Shown here piece after piece: positions 1 through 64,000 of a DNA stretch of 64,000 bases. This stretch comes from Zootoca vivipara (taxonomy: Eukaryota), in the NCBI RefSeq assembly GCF_963506605.1, contig NC_083277.1:27404001-27468000 (forward strand), written 5' to 3'. Position 1 is the stretch's first letter, and each line of letters opens with the position of its first letter. The notes beneath the pieces were generated by a model, which had not been told where the DNA came from, ran no database searches, and saw only the letters and a list, made by a program, of their open reading frames with translations. Made by a program: the position numbers and the translations under genes.

Positions 1-426
1 TCCAGAGAGCCATCTTTTCCCATTGTCCCTTTGAGCTTTCAGATCTGACACAATTAAAAACAGGAGGTCAGGTTACTGCTCAAAATTGAATGATTTTATG
101 CCACTTACTAATGCTGGCTCCTTGTGGGCCAACTGAAAAGAGTGATCTCTCTCATAGGCATTCATGCCCCTTACAATCATAAGGCACCTGAAAACCATAT
201 TAACATAAGCATATTTTCTCCATCTCTTCTGCTAATGTTCAGAGGACATGACCTAACAGTTGTTCTTTTTATTCTCCAGGAATGGCCTCTGCCTTTTGGG
301 TCTCTTAACTTGATTGCTGTTTGTTTTAATTATGTTTTGAGTGGTGCTCCAGATTCTTTATTGCCTTGTTGTGTGACTGGTGAAGACCCTTGGCTAAGGA
401 ATTTGTCCTTAAGGGTTTTAAATTGG

Positions 427-471
<45 letters not shown>
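427..471. repeat. (AAT)n microsatellite
   Basis: Pure ATA/AAT run; explains the poly-Ile/poly-Leu ORFs here. Confidence 0.95.
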
Positions 472-472
<1 letters not shown>

Positions 473-1006
473 CTTTAGCGCTTTGGATGAGATGTAGGGG
501 AAGGTCACGGTTTACCAACACAACAAATGGCAATTTTTTTGGCATCTGGGCTTGTTTTATTTGAGATTTTGCAAGCACCGACTGCTTCTATAAAGCTTAT
601 AGCTGGGATAATGGAAAACCACCCAAGCTGGTGGATTCCAAGCTACCTGCTTGCAGCAATAACACCAGGATTAATTGGCTCCACTATTTTCTTGTTCCAG
701 AAGGCAGCGTCACATTACCATTTTTGCAGCTGGATTAAGAAGAAGAATTAATATTTTAACATAGAAAGGTTTTACTGGAGTTTCCAGAAATGGAAGGTGC
801 CTCGGAGTTTGCAGAGGCCCAATGTGATCATAGAATACTGCAGAAAGTAAAACAGTTGTGATGTAAAAGAGGGAGAGAGGGGGAAAAACCCTCCATGTAA
901 CAGGATTTTGTCATGTGGTGGGTATTATAGAGTGGTGGGCCTTGGGTTTTTATTGTAAATCCACACTGAACATGAGGATTGGGTGGAGCAAACCTCAAAG
1001 TGGGCA

Positions 1007-1219
1007 CAGGGCCGTCTTAAACGCCCCTGCCACTGTGGTGCGCCGGATCTCTCCGGCGCCCTCCCGCCCCGTTTCCCAGCGCAGTGGGCGGGTGGGCGCA
1101 GCGGCGCGGCGGACCAGCGGATCGGCCGGCCAGCGGGCGGGCGCAGCTCGCGGCGCCTTTCTGGCGGGCCGGCGCCATGGTGCCCTGCGCCACCGGGGGT
1201 CTACCTAGAGCCGGGCCTG
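1007..1219. mobile_element. GC-rich non-autonomous hAT element (MITE)
   Basis: Perfect 8-bp TSD AGTGGGCA (999-1006, 1220-1227); imperfect TIRs CAGGGCCGTCTTA / TAGAGCCGGGCCTG. Confidence 0.85.
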
Positions 1220-1375
1220 AGTGGGCAGCCCCACTCACCTACCTGTCAAAGTTGGACCATGCGCAGGGGGAGAAGTAGGGATCTGGCCCACCTGCTAGAT
1301 CCAGTTCCTCTCTCCTGTATTTGGGCAAAAGAGCTACAGAAGTGTCTGGAGCAGAAAGACTGAATGGGTACTAAG

Positions 1376-1654
1376 TACCCTCCAACATTTCTCTGATGAA
1401 AATAGAGGTGTCCTAAGGAAAAGCCAACCTAGCAGTTTGAAAGCACATCAAAATGCAAATAGATAAATAGGAACCGCTACAGCGGGAAGGTAAACGGCGT
1501 TTCCATGTGCTGCTCTGGTTTGCCAGAAGCGGCTTTGTCATGCTGGCCACATGATTAAGGAAATGCAGGATATTCTGGGATCAAATCATAAACTGTGATG
1601 GCTTCTGTAAATCTGGGACTGTCCCTGGAAAATAGGGACACTTGGGGGGAATGG
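1376..1654. mobile_element. hAT-like MITE (ACCCTCCAACATTT.../...GGGACACTTGG family) interrupted by a Sauria SINE fragment
   Basis: Matches the uninterrupted copy at about 21234-21373; GGGAC/GTCCC subterminal motifs. Confidence 0.7.
1423..1554 (+). mobile_element. Internal fragment of Sauria SINE
   Basis: Near-identical to the middle of the full copy at 41609-41954; flanked by TAAGGAAA on both sides. Confidence 0.9.
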
Positions 1655-1790
1655 TAGATGTTTGATCCTCCATTCGCCTACTGTCTTACTAGTTCTCCCT
1701 TCCTGAAGCTGTTTTGCTATAATAGAATAGCTATTTGGATTCCGTTGCATACATTCATGTATACAACAAGTCCCTTTGCCATAAGTTTAA

Positions 1791-1793
<3 letters not shown>

Positions 1794-1823
<30 letters not shown>
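1794..1823. repeat. (TG)n microsatellite
   Basis: TG run. Confidence 0.95.
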
Positions 1824-1826
<3 letters not shown>

Positions 1827-2526
1827 TACACTATGATTGGCCAAAATGATGTCAATGCTGTCAGCAGACAGCTGGGACATTGTGATGGTGGTGAGAAACA
1901 CGCCCAGCGGAATAGTGTATGTTCTGCTTGCACCGGCTTGGGCTTCTCTTTCAAATGTGGCTCTTCCTTTGTTTAAAATGCAGTGACTGAGCAGCCGTGC
2001 AGCTAAGTAACAGCCAGGTCAGACCCATCAACCTGATACCTCACATAAGACCTAAAAATGAAGCAACCTATTAAAGTAAACCCAGGTGAGAGAGACATCA
2101 GCCATAGATCTGCTGAATGTTTTCAGGGAAGTTGCTTTATTTCCGGCAGAGTCCTCTCTTTCACACAAATGATTCTGCAGCTCTGTTCTGCTCACAACAA
2201 GGTTACAGCTGTGTTGTCAGCTGCTGTGTTATGGGGCCTGGGGGCCTGAGGATCTCATGAGTGGTTGACCCAAGAGGTTGGAACTGTGAATGTCTTAATG
2301 ACATCCTGAAATAGAAACAAGTTGCAGCACTGAAAAATCATACTGACATCTGTAAGTCAACAGTGAATCTGGTTGCTTGAAGCAGTGCAACTGTTGTTTC
2401 TGTTTGTAAAAAAATGATCCTATTCTACAACGTGGATTGTAAAACAATCTTCCTTTACAGCACTGATCTTCAGCTAGTGATTTGGGACCCATTTGGTGGA
2501 GTTCTACCACCACTGTTATCTTTTGG

Positions 2527-2935
2527 TGTTGAGGGGTACAGATTTGGTTGGGCCTACCCCTCATGGTTGCTGCTGCCTTTAGGGGTATTCCTTTAAAGGA
2601 ATCCTGGGGCTATACATGTAGTCCGTGTATCCCTGCCAGGGGCCAGGGCCACGCTGAGCCTCGGGGAGCATCTGAGGGATGAGGTCTAAGGCGTGGTCCC
2701 CTGCCCAGATCTCTCCTGGTAAGGATGCTTACCTACTGGCTCCCCTACTAGGCTAGTGGGAGTCAGATCTGTCCCAGGCGGGGGACAGACGGCAAGAACC
2801 AATGCCTAAGCAACCACTCACATTCAGTTGTATTTAAATAAAGTTGTGGCCAAATTAATGCCTAAAACCTTAAACTTAAAATATGGTGTGAGGTGTGAGT
2901 TATTGGGGGGATGTCTTGGTACCTCGGCACGCAAC
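2527..2935 (+). mobile_element. Probable solo LTR (Gypsy-like), degraded ends
   Basis: Starts TGTTG, ends GCAAC; AATAAAGTTGTGGCC polyA motif at about 2837; no clean TSD. Confidence 0.45.
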
Positions 2936-3481
2936 TCCCAACTCCCTCCCACTAGCCTGTGCCATGCAAATGATGGTCATGCAGGTGGGAGTGTTGCTGG
3001 AAGGATGCCAATCAACAGCAGCCATAAGCAGACCCACCCTCAAATGGGTCATTTCAGAGACGGGGGTAGGCAGCTGAGCAAGCCTGAAATCACAGACAGC
3101 ATCAGGCCCAAACCAGGATGAATCGCTGCACTAGTTGCAGGCTGGCATGGCAATGTTACCACCCTGGCCATTGTTGACAGCAGGCCTTTGGCTCTGCCAC
3201 TCCATAAATCCCCACTGGCAGGTGTGGGTGGGGGAAGAGTTGGATTGTAGCCTTGTAACCTTGGAGTTGAGGGTGCCATTTATTGACAACTCTTTCTAGA
3301 AATGGCTTTCCATGGTCTCAGGCAGAGGACTATCCTGTAAGCTGCTACCTGGTCCTTTCAGCTGGGGATGCTATTAAAAATGGAACTTTATGCAGCATGT
3401 GCTCTACCACTAAGCCATGACTCTTTGCCCCTGTTTCCTAAATACTACTGCTTCAGCATTAACTAGTACCATAATCTAATA

Positions 3482-48205: not shown

Positions 48206-48705
48206 TGTCTCTGATCCCTTTTTAATTTGTATTTGTATCCAAATAGAATTTGTATCCAAGGACAACCATATCCCACTGAGTTACTCCGTTCTACTAGCCT
48301 TCTGTTTTGCCCACCATACTTATGTTCTCATTTACACTCAAGCATTCAAGTTGGCTCAGAGGCTTCTACTAATAGCATTTGAACACTTACACATTGTCCC
48401 CCTTTCCAGAGGTCTCTGGCATGTAGCTTTCTCCCTATGGCCCTTCAGTATCTTTGACTGGCTATCCCATTCTGCCATACATTTGTTGCCATGCCCTTTA
48501 CCATTACACATTTGGCTGATCTGGAACGTTTACATGCATATCTCTAGAGACAATTCATCCTGAACTAGGTACTCCTCAGCTCCCATTGAATCAAAATGGC
48601 AGAACTTAAACAGACCTGGGACTGATCAGATGAGATACCTCCTGGGAACCTTAGGCCGGCTGTCTTGATGTCCATGAGAGAGGAATAAGTGATATCTAAA
48701 ATGTA

Positions 48706-48802
48706 TCTGAAGAAGTGTGCATGCACACGAAAGCTTACACCAAGAACAAATTTAGTTGGTCTCTAAGGTGCTACTAGACATTTTTTTAATTTTTATTTAT
48801 AT
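48706..48802 (+). mobile_element. Solo Penelope pseudo-LTR mini-copy with hammerhead motif
   Basis: CTGAAGAAGTGTGCATGCACACGAAAGCTT; 14-bp direct repeat ATATCTAAAATGTA at 48692 and 48803. Confidence 0.88.
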
Positions 48803-50050: not shown

Positions 50051-51489
50051 GGACGAGATGAAGCAATGGCCTGATTGAGCAGGCTCTTCTTATATTCTCC
50101 TTGAAAGAAGGGTAGGATATAACTGGGATAAACAAATGTACACAGATTTTGTTATTTTTGCCTACACAATAAGTGCAGGAAAAACATACCATTTGAAGTA
50201 GTCCTTAACGGAAGGCAAAACTGAATACATCTTTTCCTGCCTGTGGATAGCATTCATCGGCGTGCCAGCCTCCTTGTAGACTTCTGGGTGGGGGGGGGGG
50301 AGAAGAAAAGCTCTCGCCCTCCAATCTCAGTTCCATTGTGTGTGCAGTCGATTCCCTTGATTTCAATGGGAGTGACTTCTTCTGAATGGGCTTTGGATGG
50401 GGGATAGGAGGGCTGGCGAAACCTGACTGCTCCCATTGTGCCTCAGCGACGGGAAGCCCGTACTCCAGAGAGTACTGCAGCCATCATCCAGTAACAATGA
50501 ATGCCTAATCAAGGAGCTTTGTGTCGAAAAGCATGTGGGCTCCCCTGTGACCTTTCTTCTCTTTCCTTTGTGCTCCCACTTAGGCAGCCTCAGCTAGCAA
50601 AGCTGCGTTTGGGGGGCTCAACTTGCGCTACACGCAGATCGCAGTCGGCGGCAAAGTGACTCCTCCCTCTCCGCCCCCCCCCCAATCTCTCCTTTGATTC
50701 GACACAGATCATTAAGTGCTGCGCTTTTGTTCCCAACCCTCCTGACTCTAAGAATTGGCTAACTGTACACACTGCGAAAGAGATCGCCTCACGCTGCTCA
50801 AACCTAAGGAGGCTTTTATTGGACTTTCATGCTAAATAACTTTAAAGGTGCCCCCCGCTGCTTTTATATACATTTTAAATGCTTAAAAATATATATCCAA
50901 AAATATGCCTTAATAGCTCACTTTCAGAGCATACAGCCTCACACTAGGAAAGTGCCCCATTAGGGCTATTTATCCCCTTTTCCTGAAGCTCCACAGAGAG
51001 ACAGCTGTTTATTTGGCTTTTGTAAAAGACACCTTTGGTTTGTGGGGGTTTTTCCCCCTCCTATTACTATTGCATTTATTCGTTATTACATTTATATCTC
51101 ACCTTTCCTCCCAGGAGCACAAGGTGGGATATTGGCGAATTTGGGGAAACTGGTGAAATTGCACCAAGTGCTTGTCCTGAGAAGCCCATCTGCCATGTCT
51201 GGATTCTGTTTAGAGTTAGCATGTCAGTTGCACTGGGTGGCTTAGAAACAGTCCGTGGTTAATTGCCTGGGAAGAGGTTTTGCTTAATGCAAGGAAACAT
51301 GGTAAAATGCTAGTGGATCCCTCTGTATACCTGTATCTTTGCAAGGTTTACATCTAAGAACTGTATTATAATCAAATATTTCATGATGTATCAGCATCTC
51401 TTGAGCCATAAACTTGATACTCTAAACTGAACTGAGTGAGAAAGGGGCCTTGACTCATAAGCCCCTAAAAAGGCCCCTGCATTGACTTT

Positions 51490-51607
51490 TGTTGTTGTTT
51501 AGTCGTTTAGTCATGTCCGACTCTTCATGACCCCATGGACCAGAGCAGGCCAAGCACTCCTGTGTTCCACTGCCTCCCGCAATTTGGTCAGACTCATGTT
51601 GGTAGCA
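51490..51607 (-). mobile_element. Bov-B 3' terminal ~118 bp abutting the Penelope 3' end
   Basis: (GTT)n-TTAGTCGTTTAGTCATGTCCGACTC matches the other Bov-B ends. Confidence 0.9.
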
Positions 51608-51693
51608 GGTAGGTAGCCGTGTTGGTCTGGATCGAAGTAAAATAAAAAAATTCCTTCAGTAGCACCTTAAAGACCAACTAAGTTTTTATTTTG

Positions 51694-51731
51694 GTATGAG
51701 CTTTCGTGTGCATGCACACTTCTTCAGATAC
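51694..51731 (-). ncRNA. Minimal type I hammerhead ribozyme in the Penelope pseudo-LTR
   Basis: Minus strand GUAU-CUGAAGA-A-GUGUGCAUGCACAC-GAAAGCUC^-AUAC. Confidence 0.82.
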
Positions 51732-51918
51732 AGTGAAATGGAAGTTTCCAGGCACTTATGTAGAGAAGGGGTGGGGAGGGGTGGGGATGGGGAGGGGGGA
51801 TCACTCAGAAGGGTGGTGGAAATGGGTGATTGACTGACTGATAGCTGTTGATGACCGCAAACGACTGCAAATGGTTTTGCATGAAAAAGCAAGGGTTGAG
51901 ATGGCTGAAGATCGCTTA

Positions 51919-54099
51919 TCATGTATAATGAGATAAGAACCCGATATCTCTGTTCAAACCAGGTCCCTCCATGGTTTTGAGCTTGGTGATAAGTTGCAAT
52001 TCAGCAACTTCTCTTTCCAGTCTATTTCTGAAATTCTTTTGTAGTAAGACAGCTACTTTGAGATCTTGTATAGAATGTCCTGGGAGATTGAAGTGTTCTC
52101 CTACTGGTTTTTCTGTCTTCTGGTTCCTGACTTTATGTCCATTTATCCTTTGGCGTAGGGTTTGGCCTGTTTGTCCAATATAGAGAGCTGAAGGGCACTG
52201 TTGGCATTTGATGGCATACACAATGTTAGAGGATGAGCAATTGAATAGTCCTGAGATGGTATGTTGGATGTTGTTGGGGCCAGTAATGGTGTTGTCTGGG
52301 TGTATGTGGCAGCAAAGTTGGCATCTGGGTTTATTGCAGGCTCTGGTACCAGTGTCCATGTTAAGTCTGGTGGTTGTATTATTGTGGGTGAGGAGTTGTT
52401 TAAGATTGGGTGGCTGTCTGTAGGCAATGAAAGGTCTTCCTCCCAGAGCTTGAGAAAGGGAGCGGTCATTGTCCAGGAGAGGCTGTAGATCTCTGATGAT
52501 GCGTTGTACTGTTTTAGCTTGGGAGCTGTATGTGATGACTAGTGGTGTTCTGTTATTTTCTTTTTTGGGTCTGTCTTGCAGCAGGTTCTCTCTAGGTATC
52601 TGTCTGGCTCTGTTGATCTGTTGTTTAACTTCATCAGGTGGATATTTTAGTTCTAAAAAGGTTTGCTGTAGATCTCTTAGGTGAGATTCTCTGTCTGTAG
52701 AGTTGGAACAGATGCGGTTGTAACGTAAGGCCTGGCTGTATACGATGGATTGTTTGGTATGTTTGGGATGGTAGCTAGAAGCATGTAGATATGTTTGTCG
52801 GTCAGTTGGTTTTCTGTATAAGGTGGTGTCTATACGTCCATCCTGTATTTTTATAGTAGTGTCCAAAAAATGTATTTCTTGCATAGATTGGTTCATTGTT
52901 AGGTTGATGGTGGGGTGAAAGTCATTGAATGTCTGGTGGAAGGTTTCCAGGGTCTGTTGTCCATGTGTCCAGATAATAAAAATATCGTCAATGTATCGCA
53001 GGTACAGGAGAGGTTTGAGTGGGTAGGAGTTAAGGAAACGTTGTTCTAAATCTGCCATGAAGATGTTGGCATACTGTGGGGCCATGCGGGTGCCCATGGC
53101 TGTGCCGCTGATCTGGAGGAACAGGTCATCACCAAATTTGAAGTGGTTGTGGGTAAGGACAAAGTGGCAGAGTTTGGTAGCAAAGTCCGCCGTGGTTTTA
53201 TCTGAAATGGTGTTCCTTATGGCTTGTAAACCATCATTGTGTGGGATGTTGGTATATAGAGATTCCACATCCATAGTGGCTAGTATAGTATTGTTAGGAA
53301 GATTGTTCAAATATTGTATTTTCCTCAGAAAATCTGTGGTGTCACGTACGTAGCTGGGAGCACTGATAGCATATGGTTTCAGAACAGAGTCCATATAGCC
53401 GGAAACACCCACTGTAATGGTGCCAATACCTGAGATGATGGGGCGTCCTGGGTTTCCTGGTTTGTGTATTTTGGGTAGAAGATAGAAAGTTCCTGGCCGA
53501 GGTTCCGCTGGTGTGTTTGTGAGGATCTGTTCTTGGATGTGTAGGGGTAGCTCCTTAATAATCTTGTTCAGTTCTTTTTTGTATGCTTGTGTGGGGTCTG
53601 AGTCCAATTTCATGTAAAAGGCAGTATTGGAAAGTTGTCTGTGGGCCTCTTGGATGTAATCAGTTTTGTTCATGATGACGACAGCTCCACCCTTGTCTGC
53701 CTCTTTAATTATAATGTCTGGGTTGTTCCTGAGATTTTCTATGGCTCTCCTTTCAGCATGGTTTAGATTTTGTTGTAAGCGATGGTGTTTTCTGGTCACA
53801 TCCGTTTGGATTCTGTGGCGGAAGCATTCGATGTACAGATCTAGTGTGGTATTGCGTCCATCAGGAGGGGTCCATGTGGAGTCCCTTTTTGTGTAACTTC
53901 TTTTCGGTGGTAGTTGGTGGTCAATGTTCTGTTCATTGATGCGTTTGGAGGGTGATGGTTGTTCCCCAGTAAGTTGAGAGGTGTTGTGTTGTGGGGATGT
54001 AGTTTGTTCTACTTTGTCTTGTTCTTGTGTGTGATGAAAATACTCCTTCAGGCGTAAACGGCGGAAAAATGCTTCCAGGTCCCCGCAGAACTGAATCAT
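51919..54099 (-). CDS. Penelope-like reverse transcriptase / GIY-YIG endonuclease (726 aa from an internal Met; frame open upstream to about 54309)
   Basis: ADKGGAVVIM, LPKIHK, GRPIIS, DVESLYTNI, GTAMG, YLRYIDDIF, LYRKPT; endonuclease VYAIKC..C...YIGQT..LRQRI..H, E and GLNRD; upstream IVNLS...LS..E..VLSRGLSFCP is in frame. Confidence 0.93.
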   Translation of the reverse strand: MIQFCGDLEAFFRRLRLKEYFHHTQEQDKVEQTTSPQHNTSQLTGEQPSPSKRINEQNIDHQLPPKRSYTKRDSTWTPPDGRNTTLDLYIECFRHRIQTDVTRKHHRLQQNLNHAERRAIENLRNNPDIIIKEADKGGAVVIMNKTDYIQEAHRQLSNTAFYMKLDSDPTQAYKKELNKIIKELPLHIQEQILTNTPAEPRPGTFYLLPKIHKPGNPGRPIISGIGTITVGVSGYMDSVLKPYAISAPSYVRDTTDFLRKIQYLNNLPNNTILATMDVESLYTNIPHNDGLQAIRNTISDKTTADFATKLCHFVLTHNHFKFGDDLFLQISGTAMGTRMAPQYANIFMADLEQRFLNSYPLKPLLYLRYIDDIFIIWTHGQQTLETFHQTFNDFHPTINLTMNQSMQEIHFLDTTIKIQDGRIDTTLYRKPTDRQTYLHASSYHPKHTKQSIVYSQALRYNRICSNSTDRESHLRDLQQTFLELKYPPDEVKQQINRARQIPRENLLQDRPKKENNRTPLVITYSSQAKTVQRIIRDLQPLLDNDRSLSQALGGRPFIAYRQPPNLKQLLTHNNTTTRLNMDTGTRACNKPRCQLCCHIHPDNTITGPNNIQHTISGLFNCSSSNIVYAIKCQQCPSALYIGQTGQTLRQRINGHKVRNQKTEKPVGEHFNLPGHSIQDLKVAVLLQKNFRNRLEREVAELQLITKLKTMEGPGLNRDIGFLSHYT

Positions 54100-54888
54100 G
54101 TGTTGGGATTTGGCAGGGCAGAATGATAGTCCCCGTGAAAGGACGGATTCCTCAGCTGGGCTGAGTGTTTGCTGTGAAAGATTGACAATGTTGTTGATCT
54201 TGTTTTGATTGGTGGCCTGTAGGTTGGAAAGGTTGCAGAGTTTTTTATTTTTCTGGTTCTTCAGTAACTCCAGTTGAGAGTGGTAAATGGTTGTTTCCTT
54301 AAAAGCCTTTTAAAATAAGTTTGAAATCCCCTCCGAAAGCCTACACACTTGTAAGCATTCCTTGATTTCAATGTGAAGTGAAACCATGTGGGCATTTGGA
54401 TTCTTAACTGGCTTCTTGAGTGCAGAATAATTTTACAAATAATAATAAAAATATGAAAAGTCACTTCTCCGGAACAAAGCTATTCTTCTACCTCTGGTGA
54501 TGCCAACAAAGGAACCAGAGCAAAAACAATCACTGGTGCATTGTTTCTTTTTGCAGAGAGAGCGACAGCCTAGTGTCTCCTATTGGCCATCCACTTCCCG
54601 TGACTGCTTTTGTCAACAGGGAGCCTATTCCCCATCAACATCATCTGTCAAATGTGAGTGGCCAGAAAACATAGCTGCCAATTTGGCCTTCCCTTGGAAC
54701 TCTTCTGAGCATGGCTGGGATCCCCAGAAATTCAATTTGACAGTCGTCTTCAAAGCACCTCCACTTGCTGAAAAACGGTGCTGATAGATGAGGCAAATAA
54801 TATCATAAGGGGTTTTGCAGAATCTCAATGCCCTAGAACCACTGGTGCATATTACTGTAAATTGAAAACCCTTGTCATACGTGGATAC

Positions 54889-55327
54889 GTTTTACACACT
54901 CAGATATGCTCTAGCACAGCTAAGCTACAATCCTAGCTCTCTTTTAAAAAAAGAGAGACTTGCGTGGGGTTCTGCTAGTTTTCTCTGCATCATTGGGATC
55001 ACATGCCACAGGATGCTCCTGTCCATGCCACAACGGGTGCCATACCACTTTCATCCCAGCCAAAGCTTGCCCACCCAACAAGAATTCTGGGTGAGTCAGC
55101 CCTGACCTCAAGTGTGTATTAACCAGTCTGCGAGAAGAAGCCAACACAGAGCTATGATGAATGTTCCATCTCTGCAGGCTTATCAGCTTGGTATATGGAA
55201 CAATCCCCACCTCCCCACTGATCTGGGGTTCTTATGCCCCTCTCAGAGCCAATGTCAAGGGGCATGGGGGAGGAGAGGGGAGGACAAACCCATTGCTGTT
55301 TTACACACTCAGATATGCTCTAGCACA
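54889..55327. other. 379-bp unidentified segment between perfect 30-bp direct repeats
   Basis: GTTTTACACACTCAGATATGCTCTAGCACA at 54889-54918 and 55298-55327. Confidence 0.85.
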
Positions 55328-55507
55328 TCTGAGGTGAATCCCACCCTGTAAGACCCTTACACCCTGCAACACACTCATCACTTGATGGCTGCAGTTTGGC
55401 TGTGGACTTGCATGTGTGACTGCCACAGCATATAAGAACTATTCACAAAACACTCACATCACTTTGAACATCCTGGAGACCCTTCCTATCTTTTGCAGAA
55501 AGCCATC

Positions 55508-56197
55508 TGTGAGGGATTCCCCGTTTCCCACCCCTCACTGCTTCAACAACAGGGTTTCCCTGTGCTTCCATACAAACAGGAATAAACCTCCAGTGTCCAA
55601 ATTGGACTTGTCTCCAGGGTACCTCAGGGCTCTGTGTTCAAAACCTATTGCCACCAGGGGGTCTCCCTCCAGTGGATCCCTACTGCTACAATTTGTCTCT
55701 CCCTCTGGCAACTATGTGGCTCTCTTGGTTTCACTAACCAGCCCTTTGTATGACAGAAGAAAAAGCAAACAGTTTCCTCTTCCACAGGAAAGCTTTGTTC
55801 TTGCCTCTTAGTCACACCTCTGAGGGTACTGAGACACTGCCCGAGTCCACGAACGTTTAGGCACATTTAACTTTATTGTTTAACTTGAAAGCATGGATTT
55901 CTCTGGTTCTTAAAAGTGCATATCTTCTTTTCATATAATACAGACTTGTTAACACATCTCCTGCAGCTTGATAATAACGGTTATAACCTTTCTTCCCATC
56001 CACTCAAGCCTAACCTCCTGCTCCCTCTCTAACCCTCCACTCCCCAACTGCCAACCCCCAACTGCCTTTCAACGGTTGTTCCCCCTCCATTTAGAACGCC
56101 GACTAGCTCCGCCTCCCAGGGAACACCTGCCTATCATGGGAGTGACAGATTAACCCATGATGAACCCGGAATCATCATCAGTCACTATTCCACCACA
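55508..56197 (-). mobile_element. Solo LTR
   Basis: TGTG...CACA termini; minus-strand GC box (GGGAGGCGGAG) and AATAAA; degenerate flanks CCATC/TTATC. Confidence 0.65.
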
Positions 56198-57008
56198 TTA
56201 TCCAGTGTGAAGAAATTACACTAATATGACCCAGCCCAAATGTAAGCAAGGTCACCTGATGCCTGTGCTTCATTCATTTTTTAAAAAGAGCCCTCGTAAG
56301 GTTTATCTCTAAAACTTAGGCAACAACCACCACCAAGAAATTAACCACATAAGAGGCTGTTCTAGGGGCCAATTACCAAAATTTACAGTCACAAACCAAC
56401 ACCATCCGTAAAGAAGAGCGGCAAAAATAAAGAATGGATTTGCCTCTCTTCACCCACCCACAAGACAGGGAAATAAAGGACCTTGACAGAACAGTGGATA
56501 TTAGTGTTAGTGAACGACTGCAACATGTCTTAATATAATCTCAAACTCTCATCACAAATCAGCTTAGAAGCAGCATATGAGCTGGCCTGCAATGACTTGC
56601 GCACCCTTGCTGGCTCTTATCTGCTAAATTGCTTTGCGGCAACCTCCCTCCGTGCCCTTGACCACATCTGAAAAGTATTTGTCTCCGGCTTCCAAACAAT
56701 ATGACAAGTCTACTTTGTGGCTTCCAAATATCTTAGGGTATAATTTTCTTTTAATAGCCACCTTCTTTCCTTGATGCATTTTTCTCCGCAGCTGATGGAT
56801 GACCGAGGACCTAAAATGACTTGGAGACTCCAGCAATATTCATTTATCAAATGAATCCTTCCGCCAAGAATCTAACTAGATAATGGGGACAGAAATATAT
56901 TTTGTAAAAGAACAAAACAACAACACATTGCTGAGTGAATAAAATAGAAAGGCGGAGCGGGGAGGAAAGCGACAAATGAAAATGTTGCTACATAGGTTGT
57001 ATTGTATC

Positions 57009-57704
57009 TAGGAATGGGTGAATCTGTTAATTTCAGTTTCTCTCAGTTTCTCAGTTTCCCAGTATTCACTTCAATTCTCTCCATTTCTGCATGCGTTTAT
57101 GATTACTTTTTTTTTAAGGGCCTCATGAGAATAATCAACATTTTAGTGAAAACATCTCCTGAGATAATCATTTTTGTAAGCATTTTTGACTGATACACAC
57201 ATATTTTGCAAGCAGTTTCCCCTTATATAATAAATTGTGTGTGTTATTCACTAATATATGCATCGAAGAAGAGAAGAAAAAGAGTTTGGATTTGATATCC
57301 TGCTTTATCACTACCCTAAGGAGTCTCAAAGTGGATAACATTCTCCTTTCCCTTCCTCCCCCACAACAAACACTCTGTGAGGTGAGTGAGGCTGACAGAT
57401 TTCAGAGAAGTGTGACTAGCCCAAGGTCACCCAGCAGTTGCTTGTGGAGGAGTGGAGATGCGAACCCGGTTCACCAGATTATGAGTCCATCGCTCTTAAC
57501 CACTACACCTCTCTCGAATGTACACTTTCCCCTAAAACACACATTCTGTGCAAACGGGATATGTTTGGAGAATTGCATTGCAATATTTGGAGAAGTGCAA
57601 ATCTCAAAGCATAGTTGTGTTTGGGTTTGCATATTGTTTTGGAAAGTGAGAATTTTGGTAGGTTTACACTAAAATTCTAACCAAAACAAATTTCTCCATC
57701 TCTA
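57009..57704. mobile_element. Old TAGG(G/A)ATGG-type hAT MITE with SINE insertion
   Basis: Ends TAGGAATGGG / CCATCTCTA; flanks ATTGTATC/GTTGTGTC; related fragments near 7635 and 35205. Confidence 0.55.
57266..57509 (-). mobile_element. Squam3-like SINE
   Basis: Reverse copy of 42188-42428 with (TCT)n-like tail. Confidence 0.8.
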
Positions 57705-58923
57705 GTTGTGTCTAACGGATTCGTATTTGGAAAAGGTGCACTACAAATTTACGTTGATTGATATCAGTGGGTCTATTCCGAGTATGGCATAGTTGGGTAC
57801 AACCAACTGCAGTTGGAGTTCTTTCTGGGTCAGGAAATGAGGAACAGCAATTAACTTCAAAGTGAAGATGTATCATCAAGGCGTATCAACATCCCAAAGT
57901 TCTCCGGTAGTATAGTTAATTCTTAATCCCTTCTGCTCAAGCGGAAGGCTGAAATATTAAACAGCAGATCATTCTTTGCCTCGCAGAGAAGCATGAGCTG
58001 GCGATATCTTGTTCTCTCTTTAAAGGGATCGATTATTCCCCAGAAACTCAGTCAATGGGGAGCGTTATTCAGTATCTTGCCATCCATTTCCAGCCACACT
58101 TTAGTGCCTAAGGGTATTAATTTAAGGATAATATGTATGAGTCAAGCTTCTACACAATGAAGTAGCATGTGTGACTGCCAGAAAACCTCCCTCCAAGAAA
58201 CACCCTGAATGGCACCAACCTTCCGCTTTCGTTCAGCATTGCCAAATGGAGTCATAAAGTTTCTGTACGCTGTAATGAGGCTGGTAACATTTTGAGTGGA
58301 GGGAGTTCAGTTGGTGAACTTCCTCAGCTTGAAAAGGCACAGTCCACTGTGAGTCAACTCCAGACCCATTTCTGGCATCCACCAGGCTAAGGCAAAGAGA
58401 AGCGGGGGACTCCAGGGACTCCTTAAACAGCTCTGCTGAAATACCACCTCCATCGGGGTCTCCATAAACAGTGATATACAGCAGCCCTTGCATCAGTCCA
58501 AAGGAGAGGGAGAAAGATGGGCCTGCAAGGCCTCTCTTTCAGCTCTGTCAAAAGGCCAGCAATCTTTGGTTGCTCCTCTCCTTGAGACCTTCCCATTCTA
58601 GCTAGTCGTTACGAGAACTCTGAAGCTACGAAATAGGTTTCATGGTTTTCTTCTTTCCTTCTCTCTCCCAATCCCTTTCCCTTTTGTATTGTGCCTTTTA
58701 GATTGTAAGCCTGAGGGTGGGAACTGCCATATTCTTGATGTTTGTAAGTTACTCCAGGAACCTTTTTGGGGAAAGATGGGGAGGGGATTGGGTTGAAGAG
58801 TGTGACAACAATGCTTTAAATAAATACCTAAATCAAATTCAGTAGAGGAAACAAACTGGCCTATGAAGCTGGCACAAAGTGCTGCTCCTGAGGATGCTCA
58901 GCAATCTCATTCTCACTGTAGAG

Positions 58924-59059
58924 CAGGCATCCCCAAACTGCGGCCCTCCAGAGGTTTTGGCCTACAACTCTCATGATCCCTAGCTAACAGGACCAGTGGT
59001 CGGGGAAGATGGGAATTGTAGTCCAAAACATCTGGAGGGCTGAAGTTTGGGGATGCCTG
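58924..59059. mobile_element. Palindromic ~136-bp hAT MITE
   Basis: TIR CAGGCATCCCCAAACT; flanks CTGTAGAG/GAGTAGAG; same family as 8733 and 38022. Confidence 0.9.
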
Positions 59060-59085
59060 GAGTAGAGTCAGACAAGTGTTTGTCT

Positions 59086-59222
59086 AGTTACAGGTAGGTA
59101 GCCGTATTGGTCTGCTGTAGTCAAAACAGAATAAAAAGAAAAATCCTTCCAGTAGCACCTTAGAGACCAACTAAGTTTGTCATTGGTATGAGCTTTTGTT
59201 TGTATGCACACTTCTTCAGATA
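59086..59222 (-). mobile_element. Solo Penelope pseudo-LTR mini-copy, hammerhead core decayed
   Basis: Matches 51607-51731; TSD GTTTGTCT; core GAAA changed to AAAA at a CpG. Confidence 0.88.
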
Positions 59223-59260
59223 GTTTGTCTGTAAACCTTCCTTATTCCAAAGGAAAGGGT

Positions 59261-59264
<4 letters not shown>

Positions 59265-59313
<49 letters not shown>
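59265..59313. repeat. (TG)n microsatellite
   Basis: TG run. Confidence 0.95.
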
Positions 59314-59315
<2 letters not shown>

Positions 59316-60507
59316 TTGCTGGTGAGCAGAGACAGAAGTGGCTGTGCAAAAAAACCCCAAAAACAAAACAAAAAACACCTGGTTTTTGAGTCCTCAAGGA
59401 TTTTCAAGCATCTCAAGGTAATATAAAAAACCCTGAATGGTTTTAGAAGTGACATGGGTGGTGGGGGTAGAAAAACCACACATCAATAGTTATTTAGACA
59501 ATGGCTCACAGCTGGCCATTTCCACCATTCAGCCATTGATTTCATATTATTTGTCTATTTCTCTTTGGTGGTATTATCAGGCATTAGGAGGGAGCAATTT
59601 GATCCATCCATCCTAACTGGCGTGCTTTATTAAGATAAGGAAGAATGAAGTTTGGTGTGATCTGGCTTTGAGCTAAGCTGTGTCAAGTCTGGGTGCTTTG
59701 AAAAGTAGGCGTCATATTCATTCCAGCCATCTTCATTGGGGAGAATCGTGGGAAATGGTGAGTGTGTGTAACAGTTTAAGTCTTATAATGTCAGCAATGA
59801 GAGTTGCTTGAGTCAAAGGCAAATTTCCAGCATTCATTCTGTGAGTTCCGGTATGTGTATTCATATTTATATTTTGTTAAGGTGATTCCAGTTAAAAGAA
59901 ATAAAGTGATGCAGAAAAAAGAAGGGAAAGTGAGAGGGAGAAAACAACAAAGATACATATAAAAGTGAAACTATGAAAAAAGGAGCAATATACGATATTC
60001 CCATACATTATTGTATAAATTGGTATAGTGTTATTGTCCTAGTGCGTATGTAAATGCTGATAGCCTGCTACATTTTGTATAAACTTATTCCAAATGTTTA
60101 CGTATTTATCCATACAGAGTCTGTGCCTGGAAGCAGTCCGTTCATAAATTGCTAGTGATGTCATTTAGTCAGTCCATTGATTGAAGGGTACCATATCTTT
60201 ATTTTTCCAGTTCCTCAACATCAGTCTCTTGGCCACCATTAGGGCATGGAAAATCAATTTCCATTGTCCCATTGATAATTTTCATACCGCAAGTACATAC
60301 TGAAAGATTTAACTTTTTCTGCCCAGTCATAGCTACAGAGTACAGCACTTTCTCTCAAAACTTGTTAAGTAAAGAACACTGTACAAATGTGTTTCAGAGA
60401 GTCGCTGTCCTTGCCACATCTCCAACACTGAGCTATCTTACCTAACCCCTTTTTTATAAAACGGTAAAGGCGTCCAAGAAACTCTAAATATTATTTTTTG
60501 TGGCATT

Positions 60508-60674
60508 GTTGTTGTTGTTTAGTCGTTTAGTCGTGCCCGACTCTTCGTGACCCCATGGACCAGAGCACGCCAGGCACTCCTGTCTTTCACTGCCTCCCGC
60601 AGTTTGGTCAAACTCATGTTCGTAGCTTCAAGAACACTGTCCAACCATCTCGTCCTCTGTCATCCCCTGGATCG
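60508..60674 (-). mobile_element. Bov-B 3' fragment inserted in L1
   Basis: TSD TTTGTGGCATT; (CAA)n tail. Confidence 0.92.
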
Positions 60675-61750
60675 TTTGTGGCATTAGTCTAATGACTAAT
60701 CTAATGACACCTTAGGTATTGAAGCTAATACATTTTCCCATTGTCTGGGTAATAATGAAAGTTCCAATTCTTTATTCCAATCATCTCTTACAATCGGCAT
60801 ATTGAACTTGTCTATTGTTAATAGATATGTATAAAAAGTAATTGCTGGCTTTTTATTTTTGAATGAGTTGTCCAATTGCTCCAATATTTCAGGTATTTTG
60901 GAAGTAAGGAGATGTTGTAATTGAAGATATTACCTGTTGGATTCTATTTGCTATCAGTTGGTCCAATGTCAATACACCTGCTTCCATCCAATTTTTCCAT
61001 ACCACCATATTTTTTGCAATTCTTAGTGTGGGGTTTCCCCACAGATTACGTTTAGCATGTGATAATGGATCAAATTTGTTTTTATTAGCCAATATATTCC
61101 ATATTCTTCTAAACGACTTAATTGTTTCAAGAGTCACCTGAGATTTCAAATATTTCAATCCTAGTTTTGTCCAACCAACCAAAGGTGCTATCTACATATA
61201 TTCTAGGGTTGCTCACACCAGAAAATTAGGGCCAACAGTGGGATTCCAATATTTAGAACTTGACAGAATCTGGGAATAATATTCATTTTGAGAGCATTCA
61301 CCCTTTCCCAAAGTGTAAGGTTCAGTGACTCCGACCTATCAATATCTGAAGAAACCTTTTTTTAAATTAATTTTTTTCATATTAACTGTAACTCACGTGT
61401 TATATCTCTTGATATTAGCATACCTAAATATTTAATAGATTTGGAATAAACCCAAAATTGATATTACTTGAATGAGTGTGTAAACAAATTTTGATCTATT
61501 GGCATCAATTCTGATTTGTACCAATTAACAGAATAACCTGATATTTTACCAAAGGCGTCTATCATTTGCATCAAGATGGGTATACTAGACTGAGGTTCTG
61601 AAATAAACAAAAGTATATCGCCTGCAAATAAAACTAACTTGTGGTCAGTCAACTGAATTATGAACTGCTCCGTGAATCTCGTGATGTTGTCTAATAGCGT
61701 TAACCAGGGGCTCTAAACAAATTTTAAAAAGCAAAGGTGAGAGTGGACAC

Positions 61751-62418
61751 TAGGATGATGACTTTTTCATTTTTTTCCTCAAATTTTTTTCCCTGTAGCA
61801 CAAATGGATGATCTTTTGCCTATTAATGACTGAAATGAAGTATATTCCATTGAAATATTTAAAAAGGTCACGCACAAACTGTTTTTAATTTTTGTATGCC
61901 GTTTTACCATTTCATAAAATTGTATTAACAATTCTATATATATTTCATATCAAATTTGTACACAACACCACATTCCACAATGGGGAGTGTTCTTAGCAAC
62001 ATAGGATATACAAATACCACACCTGTGCAAGGTAAAAGACCCTTTTTGGGACCTCAAAACTCTCAACATGACCCTGCCGGACATGTTGGGAAAAGAACCT
62101 ACAGGAGAGGTAGCAAAACATCGTCCTCTAGTGGCGTCTATACTGTTAATGCAGCTTAAAAAAGCTTCCTTGTGTGTTTGATGACCCTATATAATGTTGT
62201 ATATATGTGACTCTAAAGCTTGGGTTCAATTTTATATCTGCTTACAGTGACTTCAAAAATGGTCAAAAAACTGATAAATAAAATTTTTTAAATCATTTTG
62301 TGCGTGAGGTTTTTTTTTTTATCAAATCTCTTTGAAAGTAAGCTTTTATCTAATCTTTAATGAAAGCTCATCATATTATGATACAGGAAAATGAGGTTGT
62401 AAAAAAGTCATCACCCTA
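61751..62418. mobile_element. AT-rich non-autonomous hAT (Ac-type) element inserted in the L1 RT
   Basis: TIR TAGG(A/G)TGATGACTTTTT; TSD GTGGACAC/GTGGACAT. Confidence 0.9.
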
Positions 62419-63361
62419 GTGGACATCCTTGTCTGGTTCATTGAGCCAACAGAAAGGTGGCAGACTCTAGATGTGGGTGCCTCGTACATTACTTTGATCC
62501 ATTTTATAAACTCCAAGGGAAATCCAAATTTAATTAAAGCTAACTCCATATACTGTTTATAAATTTTATCAAAGGCCTTTTCGGCATCTAATGATACGAT
62601 TACAAACTGATCTTAATTTTTATTTAAGCCAAACAAATGTACCACTAATCTAGTGTTATCTGCAGCTTGTCTTGTTTTTATAAAGCTGGTCTGATCCCTC
62701 TCGATTACCATCGCAATTACCTGTTGGATTCTATTTGCTAGTGTTGATGTTAAATTTTTTGTATCAGCATTAATCAAGGATATAGGGCGATAATTCACAC
62801 ATTTTCTGTTATCCTTATCTTGTTTGGGAATAACTTTGATATAAGCTTAGTTAAATATTGTTGATATGATACCTTTATCAAGTATCTCATCATACAATTG
62901 ATGAAGTTTTGGTCCAGTATCCATCCTCAATAGTAACTGGCCACACTAAGTCCAAAAACATATGTGGGGTACCATATTGGCTATCTACAATCTAGAAGCT
63001 TCCAGGTATACCTCCCTTCCAAGTATACAATGAGTTTCAAGTACATGCCTATGTCTGCATGGTGAAATGTTAATAGAACAACATGAAGGACTGGTTTTTG
63101 TGTATGTCTGAGAACAGTCTTACTGTTGTAATGCAAGACATTTATTTTAACTTTCATTGTTACTCATAACTTATCTTATATTTTTACCATTATTTTCTAC
63201 AAGCCTGATGTTAAATTTTATTCATGTTGATGCCAGATAATGAGAATAAAAGCTAGAATTCTGATAGGTTTGTGGCCGATGCTCATATTGTTAGGTTAGT
63301 AATTTGGCAGTTAAGCACATTTTAAAAAGGATAGATGAGTGAGCTGAAAGAAATGAAGAAG

Positions 63362-63451
63362 CATAGCCGCCAAGTTATCCCTTTTTAAAAGGGATTTTCC
63401 CTTATGCTGAATAGGCTTCCTCGTGAGAAAAGTGAAAACTTGGCAGCTATG
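63362..63451. mobile_element. 90-bp hAT MITE
   Basis: Perfect TSD TGAAGAAG; TIR CATAGC(C/T)GCCAAGTT. Confidence 0.92.
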
Positions 63452-64000
63452 TGAAGAAGACACACCAAGTTTGTTGGAAATCAGAAATCCAAGCAAAACA
63501 CGCCATTAATTACAAAAGTCACTGTAGCTGTTCATTCTGCATTTTTATAGAAGCTACTTTCTCTTTGGAAATGCACAAGGGCAATGAGAGTAATATGATG
63601 TGAAATACGCTTCATAGGGAAGCATCAGATCACAGTCTTTGGGAGGTTTCTACACGTCTCAACCTTCTTTTGATGGTTCACCTGCCATACACGAGGGACT
63701 CCATCCAAATTCTGACAGCCTTGATCTACCAGAAGGAATGAGTAATGCCAGCCAATCAGTACTAAGGGGCATGATCAAAAGCATCAAGTCATTTAGATTT
63801 CTGCCTTTAAAGCACGGGAGTTGGACAGCCCTGGGTTAAGCCTGCAGAGATCCAAATTCAGTATTAGTAGGCGTGCACAATATGTCTGAAGAACGATTCT
63901 TTTCCCCTGCTCCTCCCTAATACACAGGTATTAAGAGTCAAATCACTGCAGTGAGAATGGCTGGCACGTTGTTTGTTTCTTCCCCTGTTAAACAAATTGG

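Follow-up and report, generated by a model that had tools for sequence, protein, structure and literature searches.

A young Neptune-type Penelope-like element in Zootoca vivipara, probably split by a 25-kb inversion

The window considered here is a stretch of 64,000 nt from the genome of Zootoca vivipara (NCBI RefSeq assembly GCF_963506605.1, contig NC_083277.1, positions 27,404,001 to 27,468,000), which carries on its minus strand a copy of a Penelope-like element (PLE) with reverse transcriptase (RT) and GIY-YIG endonuclease domains. We read this copy as the 3' arm of an 8-kb insertion that was split, after integration, by a 25-kb inversion, and we give this reading a probability of roughly 60%. 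The features of the locus are given below in window positions; C and L numbers denote contigs and loci, and published work is cited throughout from the accessible parts of the papers.

51489-51606, no strand: half of a repeat resembling a short interspersed nuclear element (SINE) that was hit by the element; the rest stands reverse-complemented beside the other arm, at about L032:859-970 (sequence match)
51594-51606, no strand: 13-nt target-site duplication, 13 nt being the mode of the family; the second copy is inverted at L032:958-970 (C2:27477958-27477970)
51607-54290, minus: PLE arm, positions 329-3018 of the 3030-nt unit by unit mapping, read as the 3' arm of the 8.0-kb, 2.66-unit insertion
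51607-51918, minus: 3' pseudo-long terminal repeat (pseudo-LTR), ending at the 'long' 3' end of the family, with tail (comparison with family copies)
51694-51731, minus: minimal type I hammerhead motif with the features of PMC4209133 and a predicted cut after the C at 51698
51731-51762, minus: likely core promoter and RNA 5' end, with a TATA-like word at 51762-51755 and an initiator-like word at about 51734
51919-54290, minus: codons 110-901 of the RT-endonuclease open reading frame (ORF), 790 codons after a 2-codon loss, with no start codon or promoter of its own
52108-52224, minus: GIY-YIG endonuclease core (Pfam PF01541 match)
52129-52131, minus: private net loss of 6 nt, three residues becoming one, just past the conserved R-x3-H (locus alignment and genome-wide junction word)
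52312-52338, minus: C-x4-C-x2-C linker, CNKPRCQLC (translation and by-eye comparison with PLE alignment rows)
52984-52995, minus: RT catalytic YIDD (frame translation and Pfam RT match)
54291-54296, no strand: proximal inversion junction, with a 5-6-nt A-rich word present at both junctions (junction comparison)
54297-64000, no strand: start of 19.7 kb of inverted host DNA, which runs past the window to about C2:27477970; the whole inverted segment is C2:27458297-27483345

Units of this family are 3030 nt long, are arranged head to tail and hold an ORF of 901 aa. The other arm, at C2:27477991-27483345 on the plus strand, consists of unit positions 1034-3030, 1-3030 and 1-328, so that the array there ends at 328 and the window arm starts at the adjacent position, 329, with a loss of 0-1 nt of element at the break. 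The repeat whose halves lie beside the two arms, presumably a SINE, has outer flanks linked by a further 16/17-nt match, and the 5' junction carries a 20-nt filler that is mostly copied from target DNA. Two variants, 1428G and 2376C, are carried by each of the three units and are missing from the 28 other loci L003-L030; the 27-mer with 1428G has three matches genome-wide, all of them within these units. When the inversion (25,049 nt) is undone, a single colinear 8.0-kb insertion with a duplication typical of the family is obtained. The sequence-only reading had taken this copy to be 5'-truncated, a claim that has to be withdrawn: the 5' part that seemed to be missing is found 20-25 kb away in the other orientation, and its last base is the one adjacent to the start of this arm, the copy having been severed by rearrangement. 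As a caution, one half of a split insertion can pass for a 5'-truncated copy. Truncation at the 5' end is the commonest form of copy in the family, yet the idea of an ordinary truncated copy beside a separate insertion retains hardly any credibility, as the window arm by itself has no flanking duplication and is linked to its neighbour by the 13-nt duplication, by the broken repeat, by the abutment of 328 and 329 and by the genome-private variant; local hopping from the neighbouring array was rejected on the common duplication, the broken repeat and 1428G. Ectopic recombination between two inverted copies was also ruled out, the element being cut once and the other breakpoint being without a copy. 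We found no second split array at 10 loci without a clear duplication (30 kb searched on each side), and no paralogue spanning the host breakpoint.

We also considered an assembly error at a repeat, which we hold to be very improbable. Tandem arrays are hard to assemble, and other samples are without the junction; on the other side, one breakpoint lies in single-copy DNA (the proximal flank), both junctions are base-precise with a short duplication, no N is present in the window or in L031-L033, and the long inverted repeats that a misjoin needs at both ends are absent. In three of four samples (the three coming from two studies), contigs of single-copy depth cross window position 54295 and continue for 289-295 letters into non-element sequence, and therefore lack this junction, while the contig of the fourth sample continues for only 18 letters past it; the inversion is apparently polymorphic. 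A microsatellite in the distal flank, at L032:6605-6642, lies at a distance that agrees with the 295 extra letters, and at most 23 exact letters are shared between 29 relatives and the old repeat that separates it from the breakpoint.

The timing of the inversion was judged against the habits of the family. The survey took the loci of the first 100 of the 189 exact matches of a 26-mer, on contigs C1-C5, and yielded 90 regions on five contigs, 69 of them young (at least 99% identity) and 61 young with both ends in view. A flank duplication of at least 10 nt accompanies 48 of these 61 insertions and measures 12-14 nt in 33, with a mode of 13, and of the 28 two-armed loci, 24 pair a long canonical 3' site (about 3018-3030) with a short one (about 2984-2991), which is our basis for placing the break after integration. 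Priming at unit 328 would be internal, and an internal start was not demonstrated for any other copy. Canonical second primers in the family, together with the short second duplication, favour a later break over two-site priming. Two DNA ends 19.7 kb apart could instead have primed one RNA during integration, at the long site and at internal unit 328, the first complementary DNA (cDNA) stopping at 329 and each cDNA being joined to the opposite site; we consider this unlikely. It would account for the base-exact abutment and for the A-rich similarity of host site and element, and it has parallels in tumours, where reciprocal L1 inversions show two bridges that are halves of one element (10.1101/2024.08.27.596794), and in vitro, where the Poseidon PLE protein cuts and extends both strands (PMC11167929). 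It fits less well with the canonical start of second primers in the two-armed loci, with a second-site duplication of 5-6 rather than 12-14 nt, with junction letters by which a primer at 328 could pair over no more than 1-2 nt, and, in contrast to same-site L1 twin priming, with arms that become colinear when the inversion is reversed.

Several points weigh against a split after integration. The 328/329 abutment is equally expected from two primers on one RNA, and 4 of 89 outward ends in the survey are non-canonical, one of them arising from a nested LTR element and two being 5' inversions without a partner within 30 kb. The inversion of the assembled individual is known from the assembly sequence. 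The expected 295-nt contig piece was not found on the distal flank, where the comparison skipped a repeat, so that a deletion or a more complex event at the breakpoint, with possible loss of host DNA, may be involved. No haplotype with an intact 8-kb array was seen, and the order of events is accordingly inferred.

Within the inverted DNA, no convincing Pfam match was obtained in 35 of 51 frames of at least 75 aa, except two old RT fragments at window 61467-62846 on the minus strand (RVT_1, E 1e-7 and 1e-4), and the 76 frames to the left of the element gave none; short exons would have escaped both searches. A 399-nt match joins window 57110-57507 to L032:6729-7118, just beyond the distal end of the inversion; it reaches 99% over its first 172 nt and comprises a short repeat and a seemingly unique flank.

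The window arm holds a stop-free minus-strand frame at 51922-54309, with 796 codons between stops, of which 790 are coded by the element and the first 6 by flank or junction. Its protein matches RVT_1 of Pfam (E 2e-12), and the GIY-YIG domain is found when the C-terminal 159 aa are used as query (E 1e-4, 23 bits against a cut-off of 22.6) but is not reported with the whole frame protein. The motifs IVNLS and LSRGLSFCP are upstream of the first Met and inside the frame, and by eye, against the supplement rows of PMC8557442, the DKG motif ahead of the RT and the CCHH residues of the endonuclease are present. Much of what the sequence-only reading had proposed is therefore borne out, namely a frame of about 790 codons with the RT motifs including YIDD, a Cys-rich linker and GIY-YIG, its extension upstream of the called Met through both motifs, and a two-codon in-frame deletion that turns HKSDIRN into HK-VRN. 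This net loss of 6 nt is unique to the window copy, being absent in the other 29 of 30 loci, and the 32-mer across its junction occurs once genome-wide. It shortens the helix after R-x3-H, where no other aligned row covering the site has a gap, and we infer from the alignment that it would harm the enzyme. The only whole unit at the locus has YIDN (D545N) and R425H, both G-to-A changes at CpG, so that no unit here encodes an intact protein. The locus is thus predicted to be dead, the window arm having lost the promoter, 109 codons and two residues and the whole unit carrying YIDN.

The exact 3' end of the element is at 51607. The hammerhead, which had been noted some 190 nt past the frame, was located at 51731-51694, starting 187 nt past the stop (191 nt to CUGA). 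Its layout is a 4-bp stem I, CUGAAGA, an extra A, a 5-bp stem II, GAA and a palindromic AGCU with a 2-nt loop, and the features of type I motifs given in PMC4209133 are all present: the core CUGANGA, GAAA and UH, the extra base before G10.1-C11.1, stems I and II and the palindromic helix III. The 34-mer has 17,230 exact matches in the genome, and the reversed control pattern has none, a contrast that excludes chance. In an Rfam scan the hammerhead was not recovered at E<=1, and when folded in isolation the motif is no stabler than shuffles (z -0.2 to -0.9), both as expected for so small a motif. Stem II showed no two-sided change among 100 listed of 120 variants at one of its pairs, and the one-sided variants look like decay of single copies. 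Self-cleavage of this RNA is predicted from the motif. At window 51706-51719, stem II and its loop form a perfect 14-nt palindrome, for which a duplex of -25.2 and a hairpin of -4.1 kcal/mol were computed; by this calculation, two RNAs should pair far more stably through it than through AGCU, which would make it a possible second dimer contact. RNA reads show a strand-switch joint beside this palindrome (75 reads in X21).

The promoter is a reading of the TATA-like and initiator-like words, just past which, at unit 2888-2896, short copies begin sharply (28 of 68 copies); the RNA 5' end is suggested to lie there. At 17522-17620, 48702-48793 and 59083-59222 the window holds three older, short pseudo-LTR fragments of this family, which each start at the 5' edge of the hammerhead (unit 2893-2895), like the genome's many short copies, and resemble strong-stop products of an RT starting near the RNA 5' end. 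RNA data came from two 2026 runs with the same species label, both fragmented libraries, of which about 6 in 100 of each run were read. Depth is mostly below 10 over the 5' two-thirds of the ORF, with a peak over the pseudo-LTR, and 82-90% of the reads there continue into unlike sequence and so come from dispersed fragments; depth was for this reason not used as evidence. No RNA sample was found that covers the flank of the element. At C1:2777825-2779652, four exact hammerhead copies with a spacing of 598 nt may be a retrozyme-like tandem of pseudo-LTR pieces.

Genome-wide, as the sequence-only reading had proposed to search, near-identical copies are abundant: the 40 scored matches among 1813 candidates are nearly all 99-100% identical, and two 26-mers near the unit 5' end have 155 and 189 exact copies with controls at 0. 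An open 901-aa frame is present in 31 of the 35 full units read from the ATG. The suggestion of recent activity is hence supported, and the family appears to have moved recently. Its assignment to the Neptune type, suggested from the outset, is likewise supported by its architecture and by our by-eye comparison with the supplement rows of PMC8557442. A single ORF with RT and GIY-YIG, as found here, is the trait of endonuclease-bearing PLEs, and the Neptune traits that the protein shows, judged by eye, are the Cys linker between RT and endonuclease, a spacer of about 24 aa after it and the C-terminal position of the endonuclease. According to the available text of PMC8557442, a C-x2-5-C-x2-C linker is absent in Penelope and Poseidon, Nematis has a short spacer after the linker, Naiad and Chlamys differ by endonuclease position, and Neptune is paraphyletic in the RT tree. 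The family further shows pseudo-LTRs from partial tandems, direct or inverted, and an optional tail of 30-40 nt. Among named proteins, those of turtles come nearest (61-73%, along part of the query), and echinoderm and hemichordate proteins follow at about 50%; the turtle proteins (61-70%) are far closer than those of any other named group.

An older subfamily with 94-97% identity was seen at L155, L165, L088, L096, L115 and L125, two of these with open 901-aa frames, and several of its copies match the young unit only to position 2732, the 3' untranslated region being different. At about 37.39 Mb of C3 (L132:5606 to L173:4165), a PLE copy of 99.5% identity is interrupted by an element of about 5.8 kb whose 300-nt ends match each other (99.3%) and which has a duplication of 6 nt. 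This LTR-type element therefore moved even more recently; its end has two relatives at 93-96%, in L217 and L224. In the head-to-head insertions at L066, L068-L071 and L166, the unit positions at which the two arms meet agree to within 7-25 nt, which a fold-back of cDNA would produce, and other head-to-head arms meet hundreds to thousands of nt apart, in a sample biased to long arms.

The arrays were then compared unit by unit, in 42 same-direction pairs from 30 of 79 loci with the L009 unit as reference and the window arm set colinear by hand. Units of the same insertion differ at 0.61 per kb (34 differences in 55,308 nt, 5 of which are alignment noise at a deletion and a junction) against 2.88 per kb between loci. 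Among variants seen in one surveyed locus only, 25 are common to all overlapping units (in 13 of 30 arrays) and 29 are unit-specific, with CpG transitions making up 1/25 and 7/29 respectively. Three shared variants checked genome-wide have 3/3, 3/4 and 3/9 of their matches inside their array and are therefore rare, though not in every case private. Since only a one-unit step can carry a new variant into all units, the arrays were likely copied repeatedly from one unit-length template, as the circular-RNA hypothesis predicts. Of the arms that cross a unit junction, 34 of 43 run past the likely RNA 5' end and 4 stop there, which a hammerhead-cut circle explains and which jumps between the terminal repeats of a linear RNA explain as well. 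Already uniform source arrays giving read-through transcripts, or gene conversion between units after insertion, seem a rather improbable source, the one-unit step, the variants common to all units, those sets that span whole units and both arms (L159, L163) and the run-through past the RNA 5' end all speaking against them. Two of the three variants checked also occur at other loci, and so could be inherited. Two further points speak for this rival and lessen certainty: for Poseidon, uncut RNA is the main substrate in vitro and the available text of PMC11167929 reports no RNA ends at the hammerhead, and the two RNA libraries described above show no pile of read ends at the predicted cut.

For the split array, the element protein would cut the target with a 13-nt stagger and reverse transcription would be primed at the 'long' pseudo-LTR site; the RT would copy one unit-length template about 2.7 times, this template being, at about even odds, circular RNA from hammerheads or a linear RNA whose terminal repeats allow jumps. 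The 5' end would be joined with the 20-nt filler copied from the target, and later a break in the third unit and a staggered host break 19.7 kb away would be rejoined crosswise, helped by the similar A-rich words. Tentatively, and with somewhat more doubt than belief, we propose that every jump forms the pseudo-LTRs and tandems anew, a circular RNA of 3030 nt being reverse-transcribed in rolling-circle fashion; the locus would then be the product of 2.7 turns, made into a germline inversion of 25 kb either by two distant DNA ends or by a break that came later. Two hammerheads are here predicted to excise the RNA, which would be re-ligated, and the shared rare variants would be the genomic footprint. 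Such a circular template was proposed in PMC4209133, whose accessible text has no genomic test, and the idea is repeated in reviews; PMC2377424, in its accessible part, states that no evident mechanism exists for the regeneration of pseudo-LTRs. No published shared-variant test was found, judging by titles and the beginnings of abstracts, with subscription papers outside the search. What the very young family offers is a signature, at the genome level, of a template one unit long, together with the precise prediction of a circle of 3030 nt whose joint lies at unit 2927/2928, and the uniform arrays of the family make the old question of pseudo-LTR regeneration directly testable.

The element class and the ribozyme are of known kinds; the family is new. 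The locus presents a 25-kb inversion, resolved to the base and apparently polymorphic, that breaks at one end within a Penelope array and shows PLEs as participants in the rearrangement of a vertebrate genome. No base-resolved inversion split of a PLE was found in a literature search judged mostly from listings, and Penelope is said, in older cytological reports, to lie near inversion breakpoints in D. virilis.

With the Neptune clade, as far as it is described in the available text of PMC8557442, the family has in common one ORF with RT, C-x4-C-x2-C linker and C-terminal GIY-YIG with CCHH, as well as partial tandems, inverted 5' copies, the optional 30-40-nt tail and a pseudo-LTR hammerhead; it differs in the limited identity to its turtle relatives, in regular duplications of 12-14 nt and in examined flanks that are not microsatellites. 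The minimal PLE hammerheads of PMC4209133 have the same core, extra nucleotide before stem II, G10.1-C11.1, short stem I and palindromic helix III, whereas here stem II and its loop form a perfect palindrome and the 34-mer is repeated identically across the genome. Poseidon of the green anole (PMC11167929) is alike in starting RT at two sites side by side, with long and short 3' ends as the result, in its tail and in the cutting and extension of both strands; by contrast, it lacks a Cys linker and its hammerhead overlaps the start codon, whereas in our tandems the motif lies about 100 nt upstream of the ATG. The L1 reciprocal inversions (10.1101/2024.08.27.596794; 10.1101/2024.12.14.628481) also have two junctions with parts of one retroelement and a common internal breakpoint, and two such bridges were found here; the two arms, however, are not inverted to each other before the exchange, the second meeting the target with its 5' end. 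Those inversions are somatic, human and mostly the product of two events or of same-site twin priming, whereas the present case is a PLE in an assembled animal genome, with colinear arms and both copies of the target duplication kept.

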